Assembly (NCBI GenBank): GCA_032249315.1
Contig: JAVVGB010000003.1
Location: forward strand, 19,099-51,098
DNA from: Thermoproteota archaeon
GTDB lineage: Archaea > Thermoproteota > Thermoprotei > Gearchaeales > Gearchaeaceae
Length of the DNA: 32,000 nt
Direction: 5' to 3'
The position numbers were made by a program, and so were the translations under genes. How positions within the stretch are numbered: position 1 is the stretch's first letter; each line of letters opens with the position of its first letter. Positions 17,505 through 17,671 of this stretch are shown one piece after another. The notes beneath the pieces were generated by a model. That model worked only from the letters and a program-made list of their open reading frames with translations. It was not told where the DNA came from and ran no database searches.

Positions 17505-17601
17505 CGCCGGGAGTGGGATTCGAACCCACGAGGGGAAAAATCCCCACAGGCTCTCAAGGCCTGCGCCTTGTCCACTAGGCTTTCGGGAATTTTATCCCGG
17601 C
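17505..17601 (-). tRNA. tRNA-Ser(UGA), class II, with a 12-nt non-canonical insert between acceptor stem and D stem; mature length 85 nt; CCA not encoded
   Basis: Minus strand: GCCGGGA-U[AAAAUUCCCGAA]A-GCCU-AGUGGACA-AGGC-G-CAGGC-CUUGAGA-GCCUG-UGGGGAUUUUUCCCCUC-GUGGG-UUCGAAU-CCCAC-UCCCGGC-G. Its stems are nearly identical to tRNA-Ser(GGA) at 288-372. Confidence 0.8.
17582..17593 (-). other. Putative 12-nt tRNA intron at position 8/9 (relaxed BHB: central helix plus 3' bulge, with the 5' site in the terminal loop)
   Basis: CGGG (17596-17599) pairs with CCCG (17584-17587). The flanking trinucleotides are AU|A and AA|A. Cutting after the 2nd nucleotide of each removes 12 nt and leaves U8-A9 before the D stem. 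Confidence 0.5.
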
Positions 17602-17630
17602 TAATTTCCCGGCAATATTATTAATAATAG

Positions 17631-17640
17631 AAATATAAAA
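17631..17640 (-). promoter_or_regulatory. Candidate TATA box (TTTTATATTT on the minus strand) for tRNA-Ser(UGA)
   Basis: It is centred about 22 nt upstream of the first GCCGGGA copy (17613) and about 34 nt upstream of the second (17601). Confidence 0.3.
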
Positions 17641-17671
17641 TAAATCTAAATATAAATGCAAACCATAAAAC

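Follow-up and report, generated by a model that had tools for sequence, protein, structure and literature searches.

The tRNA-Ser(UGA) locus

The window, by which we mean the whole 32,000-nucleotide stretch of contig JAVVGB010000003.1 that was analysed, comes from a hot-spring archaeon and carries a tRNA-Ser(UGA) gene on its minus strand between positions 17613 and 17505, and direct reading of the window found every element described here base for base at its coordinates. Read 5' to 3', the locus opens with the heptamer GCCGGGA (copy 1, 17607-17613), a candidate stand-in, or surrogate, for the 5' acceptor strand that lies at or near the 5' end of the transcript. The spacer AAUUA (17602-17606), presumed to be a portion of the 5' leader, separates it from a second GCCGGGA (copy 2, 17595-17601), the true 5' acceptor strand, which provides tRNA positions 1-7. 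Exon 1 ends with U8 (17594), a base that is U in all 11 orthologues, and is followed by a putative 12-nt intron, AAAAUUCCCGAA (17582-17593), whose removal by cuts between U8 and A and between AA and A9 gives a canonical product. Exon 2 (17505-17581) starts with A9 (17581) and GCCU, and holds the D arm, the anticodon arm with the anticodon UGA (17554-17556), a long variable arm, the T arm, the 3' acceptor strand UCCCGGC (17506-17512), and the discriminator G73 (17505). Upstream of copy 1 the sequence is AT-rich (17614-17645) and contains a candidate archaeal TATA-like box at about 17632-17639, a placement that is tentative in this genome.

Copy 2 lies 14 nt from the D stem, and the first-pass annotation had read this distance as a 12-nt insert at position 8/9, downstream of an exact repeat of the acceptor strand, in a gene whose body is nearly identical to the tRNA-Ser(GGA) gene at 288-372; all three descriptions agree with what was found, the identity to tRNA-Ser(GGA) being 94% from the D stem onward in an alignment. 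The Rfam tRNA model matched only the body of the locus (17511-17584; model positions 6-65, 39.7 bits) and ARAGORN miscalled the unspliced gene as a tRNA-His (17505-17580), which together indicate that the tRNA's 5' end is truly disrupted. After splicing in silico, ARAGORN reported a canonical tRNA-Ser(tga) of 85 nt, and the spliced sequence and the Rfam body match between them account for all features of a class II tRNA-Ser: the long variable arm, G73, a 7-bp acceptor stem, the anticodon UGA, and canonical D and T arms.

Failure of standard tRNA finders on a locus is what a decayed pseudogene would produce, but this tRNA has all its arms intact, and conservation of the locus extends over 11 genomes. 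The assembly (1.44 Mb in 125 contigs, 28.6% G+C, estimated to be 91% complete) contains no other tRNA with a UGA anticodon, such as the intact second copy that, with no expression, had been proposed as a mark of decay, and UCA accounts for 27% of the Ser codons in long open frames. Because the cell would otherwise have no encoded reader with this anticodon in the assembly for so frequent a codon, the locus must, as judged from its sequence, be a functional single-copy gene, and we find decay hardly credible. The practical consequence is that the sole tRNA for this codon was labelled tRNA-His; standard finders miss or miscall such genes, and the layout described here could serve annotators as a rule for recognizing them.

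A probable splicing-endonuclease intron between U8 and A9

The canonical archaeal intron at 37/38 provides a cut rule, in which each strand of the splice-site motif contributes four helix bases and two further bases before the cut (derived from PMC4090602). Within the intron, CCCG (17584-17587) pairs with C3-G6 of copy 2, so that these four bases have a double use, as part of the acceptor strand and as one strand of the splice-site helix. The rule is satisfied on both strands, by A7 and U8 before the first cut and by AA before the second, and splicing leaves U8 joined to A9.

Similarity searches recovered 11 orthologues from two families of the order, all with the same arrangement. The central 4-bp helix between C3-G6 and CCCG is present in the window and in all 11, the base after copy 2 is invariably U, the future position 9 is A or G, and splicing in silico gave a canonical tRNA-Ser(UGA) in every case. 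A metagenome scan added 70 distinct tRNA-like loci as well as two named Bathyarchaeia genomes, bringing the geometry to 81 loci (11 in genomes and 70 in metagenomes), although the metagenomic loci are no independent test of the helix, because the search pattern fixed C3-G6 and CCCG. An additional pattern scan of contigs gave at least four useful loci, the first Bathyarchaeia examples among them; most of its matches were chance hits in GC-rich bacteria. Distant families of the class have a plain gene, GCCGGGG U G GCC.

The intron in the window has no inner helix, and its 5' cut falls within the hairpin loop, making it a relaxed motif of the bulge-helix-loop form. The place of the 5' cut and the outer helix both count against the explanation, the outer helix having at most 2 bp (G1C2 with G10C11) or being a stacked D stem. 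An outer helix formed by the spacer with a D-stem strand or with the trailer was considered and rejected by eye, as the pairing is not kept between lineages. A Geoarchaeota relative has the complete motif, with the helix C3-G6/CCCG, the bulge G7 U8 A, and an inner helix GGCCCGC/GCGGGUC. Introns at the metagenomic and Bathyarchaeia loci are 21-30 nt long with an inner helix, in which two Bathyarchaeia loci differ by a compensatory change between G-C and A-U. Inner helices were found in locus L014, in the Bathyarchaeia loci, and in a tRNA-Phe gene discussed below, and true 3-nt bulges in the Geoarchaeota relative and in tRNA-Phe. The strict form of this intron occurs in relatives, so the relaxed one in the window is a derived, minimal version.

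The first-pass annotation had also offered another reading, in which copy 1 is the tRNA's 5' end, a single intron of 24 nt is taken out, and A8 stands in the mature tRNA. ARAGORN accepts the product of that splice as a tRNA-Ser too, but this would put A, C or U at position 8 according to genome, with U standing after copy 2 in all of them, and the inner helix of the relatives abuts the bulge after copy 2 and not after copy 1. This reading fails because position 8 would vary between genomes, and we regard it as very improbable. Returning to the 12-nt intron, the comparison of orthologues, which all share the layout and in which the canonical motifs of relatives are built on copy 2, bears out the predicted CGGG/CCCG helix and the excision of 12 nt to leave U8 A9, as well as the description of the motif in the window as a relaxed bulge-helix-bulge (BHB) without inner helix. 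At the level of sequence comparison the intron and its cut geometry can be taken as established, and a splicing-endonuclease intron of 12 nt between U8 and A9 is very likely.

Relaxed motifs are a matter of the host's endonuclease, and a look at its subunits had been proposed. The genome encodes two splicing endonuclease proteins (PF01974/PF02778) of 181 and 173 aa. In the long single-chain enzymes, the catalytic half is matched by one of the two and the structural half by the other, which also gives weak matches to beta-subunit models. The predicted two-subunit alpha/beta enzyme fits, as expected, the broad-specificity type that is able to cut relaxed motifs.

Conservation of the upstream copy

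Copy 1 was left out of the requirements of the metagenomic pattern, and yet it was found in 70 of 70 metagenomic loci and in 11 of 11 intron-bearing loci from genomes. Across the 11 genomes six of its seven columns are invariant, and at position 7 an A to G change occurs in copy 1 and copy 2 jointly with a change of U66 to C66 in the 3' strand. Copy 1 has a mean pairwise identity of 0.94, versus 0.42 and 0.44 for the 12-nt flanks of the gene, which have no invariant column. The metagenomic copies of copy 1 are exact in 62 loci and altered in eight, always at position 7 and to G or C, and copy 2 does not vary in the 70 loci. The spacer varies in sequence by lineage and in length from 0 to 8 nt (classes of 0, 1, 3, 5 or 6 nt in metagenomic loci and up to 8 nt among the genome orthologues), with A as its final base in 10 of the 11 genomes.

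Six intron-less orthologues from other families lack copy 1. Among the chance matches outside tRNA genes, none had an exact copy 1 and one had a near-copy with a single mismatch. When the whole assembly was scanned for a duplicated 7-mer with a downstream complement beside a T arm, the only match in a tRNA was this locus, and no tRNA gene of this genome without an acceptor-proximal intron had such an upstream copy. The layout is not a chance occurrence, given this single tRNA match and a pattern scan in which 11 of the order's 12 genomes had the arrangement, against 0 of 108 other genomes of the class.

These data bear on the possibility that copy 1 is a neutral scar of an insertion event, for example a small duplication, within an ordinary leader and with no role in folding. 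Direct repeats commonly flank insertions, and RNase P would remove the leader anyway. Copy 1, however, has been kept across two families of the order and Bathyarchaeia, over a span in which flanks and spacer diverged freely; it covaries with the 3' strand, and, as described in the next section, the layout recurs in unrelated tRNAs. We consider a scar unlikely. Conservation and covariation demonstrate instead that copy 1 is under selection, so that of the first-pass view of the duplicate its presence stands, and its treatment as a mere ambiguity over the 5' end does not.

The position of copy 1 relative to the promoter is also informative. Relatives (genus g2, family f2) have a conserved BRE/TATA-like block that ends 20-23 nt upstream of copy 1, a distance that places the transcription start at or adjoining copy 1. 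Transcription thus probably starts at or beside copy 1; in the case of the window this is carried over from the relatives, its own sequence being too AT-rich for confident placement of a box.

The two Bathyarchaeia MAG contigs CAZJVZ010000006 (L121) and JBAVVE010000078 (L123) each have a tRNA-Ser(UGA) gene with the stand-in strand and an 8/9 intron. Both appear to have an encoded CCA and two further insertions, one in the D loop (about 22 nt) and one in the anticodon loop (about 23 nt); the leader (U)GGU ahead of the stand-in pairs with G73-C74-C75.

The same layout in other tRNA genes

The genomes G009 and G010, from a sister family, have a tRNA-Phe(GAA) gene of the same design (L166, G009:C3:102325-102382, minus strand; also G010:C15:17335-17482), with GCCGAGG, a 5-nt spacer, a second GCCGAGG, U, and a 23-nt intron at 8/9. 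Its motif in G009 is complete, the helix being CGAG/AUCG and the inner helix GCGAU/AUCGC. The tRNA-Phe of G011, from the sister genus, has neither intron nor acceptor copy, so that the layout in tRNA-Phe is a younger and separate instance.

tRNA-Val(GAC) of the same two genomes (L172, G009:C2:274628-274701, minus strand; also G010:C3:17894-18025) has its intron inside the acceptor strand, at 4/5: an upstream GGGUCGG is followed by GGGC, a 17-nt intron, and CGG. The inner helix gains one base pair in G010, from UGC/GCA to UGCC/GGCA. The spliced strand, GGGCCGG UC GUCU, is identical to that of the intron-less orthologue in the genome of the window (G000), and the stand-in differs from it (U4) yet still pairs, as U.G.

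More distant examples were found in G013, a complete genome of 2.1 Mb from another family of the class, where introns of the 3/4 type occur in two tRNA-Glu genes and one tRNA-Asp gene, each with a stand-in (L316, tRNA-Glu(CUC); L317, tRNA-Glu(UUC); L318, tRNA-Asp(GUC)). A full GCCCCGG lies 10 nt upstream, and fold prediction pairs it with the 3' strand. The motif of tRNA-Glu(CUC) is perfect, with the helix GGAG/CUCC and cuts between CC and G and between AA and C, and that of tRNA-Asp has one G.U pair. The mature sequences are identical whether these introns are called as 21 nt or 38 nt, an ambiguity through which databases may hide a stand-in within a "long intron".

Taken over five sequence types, all 35 of 35 stand-in:3'-strand cells pair and five of the seven pairs have changed on both sides, a count that carries ascertainment bias because the stand-ins of tRNA-Val and G013 were spotted by eye.

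tRNA-Lys(UUU) of G009 was examined as a counter-example, an intron of this kind lacking a stand-in, and was rejected, as by the cut rule it has a canonical 24-nt D-loop intron at 15/16, which calls for no stand-in. The 3' end of that intron (L165, G009:C3:62076-62134) mimics the 3' strand of the D stem (helix GCGU/GCGC) and misleads the Rfam alignment, which puts the intron behind the acceptor stem as an insertion.

Predicted folding and a proposed strand exchange

The predicted folds of the precursor are alike in 11 of 11 genes, with copy 1 paired to the 3' acceptor strand and copy 2 forming a hairpin with CCCG (z = -5.2). Before splicing, the conformer in which copy 1 holds the 3' strand is predicted to be the more stable by 6-13 kcal/mol (37 C), a margin that shrinks to 0.6-4.8 kcal/mol after splicing in silico. 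The splice-site helix has a predicted probability at 75 C of 0.33-0.89 in 9 of the 11 genes, which drops to 0.12 or less if the transcript is made to begin at copy 2. The stand-in would thus remove a competition, because a 7-bp acceptor helix would otherwise beat the 4-bp splice-site helix.

From these predictions we propose the following course of events. Transcription would begin at or just before copy 1, and the precursor's 3' acceptor strand would be paired with copy 1, the stand-in. This would leave copy 2, the true 5' strand, unpaired; its C3-G6 could then join CCCG of the intron in a 4-bp helix, that of a relaxed BHB, at which the two-subunit endonuclease would cut after U8 and before A9 and a ligase would join the exons. 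With CCCG gone after splicing, copy 2 would have lost its partner and could displace copy 1 from the 3' strand, and RNase P would then irreversibly cut away copy 1 together with the spacer, like any 5' leader. Both the strand exchange and this RNase P step are inferred. RNase P RNA itself was found at full length in G002, G003, G005 and G009 (131-169 bits); in G000 it runs off a contig end (C11:32926-33078; 28.8 bits, model positions 21-191).

Some of the predictions count against this scheme. The smaller margin after splicing in silico still slightly favours the stand-in conformer, and L008, L014 and tRNA-Phe have a low predicted probability of the splice-site helix despite their stand-ins. 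The metagenomic class with a 6-nt spacer presents another weak point: its leader pairs in addition with G73 and with C74-C75 from the encoded CCA, which gives a stand-in helix of 10-11 bp, and copy 2 would have to displace this longer helix.

The stability of the stand-in helix after splicing, which is at least that of the true helix, is one argument for the alternative that copy 1 is itself the mature 5' acceptor strand, and that, once the 8/9 intron is out, the spacer and copy 2 are either excised too, as a second micro-intron of 12 nt (7-15 nt at other loci), or persist as a 7/8 loop of the mature tRNA. The micro-intron would be excised at a palindrome, CCGG of copy 1 with CCGG of copy 2, by cuts between GA and N and between GA and U; CCGG occupies positions 2-5, exactly as the cut rule demands, and transcription apparently begins at copy 1. 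tRNA-Phe, however, shares the layout without the palindrome (CCGA), and in tRNA-Val it is the spliced copy 2, and not copy 1, that equals the orthologous acceptor strand. The putative motif would lack flanking helices and consist of a bare 4-bp hairpin, and it is copy 1 that takes G or C at position 7 in some metagenomic loci (above), with copy 2 constant. On balance a mature copy 1 seems improbable.

The role of copy 1 as a stand-in that RNase P later removes, which depends on modelled folds, is mildly favoured by these observations. For the explanation as a whole, a functional tRNA-Ser(UGA) with an 8/9 intron whose stand-in strand is cleared by RNase P after splicing, we estimate a probability of about 0.6. 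The broader rule it suggests is that a stand-in in the leader goes with those introns whose splice helix recruits the 5' acceptor strand of the tRNA itself, and forms a one-way folding switch that holds the 3' strand until splicing, then yields and is cut off; this generalization we would put at even odds. If the scheme is correct, splicing precedes 5' maturation by RNase P in these tRNAs, and they represent a distinct pre-tRNA architecture common to Bathyarchaeia, the order that contains Geoarchaeota, and G013. A stand-in would also explain how an intron in or beside a tRNA's strongest helix, its acceptor stem, can still offer a splice site.

Relation to known introns

Endonuclease-spliced introns with non-canonical positions and relaxed motifs have been described before, an intron at 3/4 among them (PMC4090602, PMC3218864, PMC8450103). 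Non-canonical BHB introns are known from the tRNAs of Crenarchaeota and Thermoproteales, and the review passages dealing with them term the 3/4 intron an extreme case (PMC4090602, citing Sugahara 2008). The intron reported here resembles them in being of the protein-spliced type, with a 4-bp helix and cuts two bases past each strand (PMC4090602), in having a host with a two-subunit endonuclease, and in its 12 nt, which lie within the reported range of 11-129 nt (PMC4090602). It differs in its position, 8/9 being missing from the positions given in the open-access reviews covered, and in its helix, which is made from the tRNA's own 5' acceptor strand and an intronic mimic of the 3' strand. It differs also in the full upstream copy of the acceptor strand, which is found beside the 3/4 introns of G013 as well and is unmentioned in the open-access papers covered. 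A search of an open-access library turned up neither an 8/9 intron nor a leader-borne duplicate of an acceptor strand, though an earlier description may exist.

Relaxed motifs (hBH, HBh', and bulge-helix-loop) are cut by heterotetrameric endonucleases (PMC4090602, PMC5829648). The motif in the window is similar, with a 3-nt bulge beside the helix at the 3' site and the 5' site in the loop that closes the helix, but for this intron the strict form is found in relatives. In split and permuted archaeal tRNAs, leader and trailer pair to build the splice site (PMC3218864), and there too transcript sequence beyond the mature tRNA sets up the structure for processing; in the present case the gene is contiguous, and the extra strand would form no part of the splice site but take up the 3' acceptor strand, the partner that competes for copy 2. 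The 14-nt intron of the cbf5 pre-mRNA in the same window is likewise minimal and A/U-rich and obeys the same cut rule, whereas its substrate is an mRNA and it has no stand-in strand.

Further intron-bearing tRNA genes in the assembly

Several additional mini-introns or non-canonical introns were found in tRNA genes of G000, in keeping with the earlier suggestion of an intron-rich lineage. They include introns of 12 nt in tRNA-Phe(GAA) (C8:39449-39533) and tRNA-Ser(CGA) (C24:10634-10730), of 13 nt in tRNA-Thr(CGU) (C1:36898-36984), near position 26 in tRNA-Pro(UGG) (C2:55894-55988), and in the anticodon stem region of tRNA-Leu(UAA) (C14:876-978). ARAGORN mislabels several of the intron-bearing tRNA genes of this genome, and its "tRNA-Ile" with a 77-nt intron at C89:1307-1479, which has neither tRNA-like arms nor an Rfam match, is probably a false positive. 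Another intron-bearing gene, a tRNA-His or tRNA-Pro at C28:6181-6294, encodes its 3' CCA, unlike most tRNA genes of this genome.
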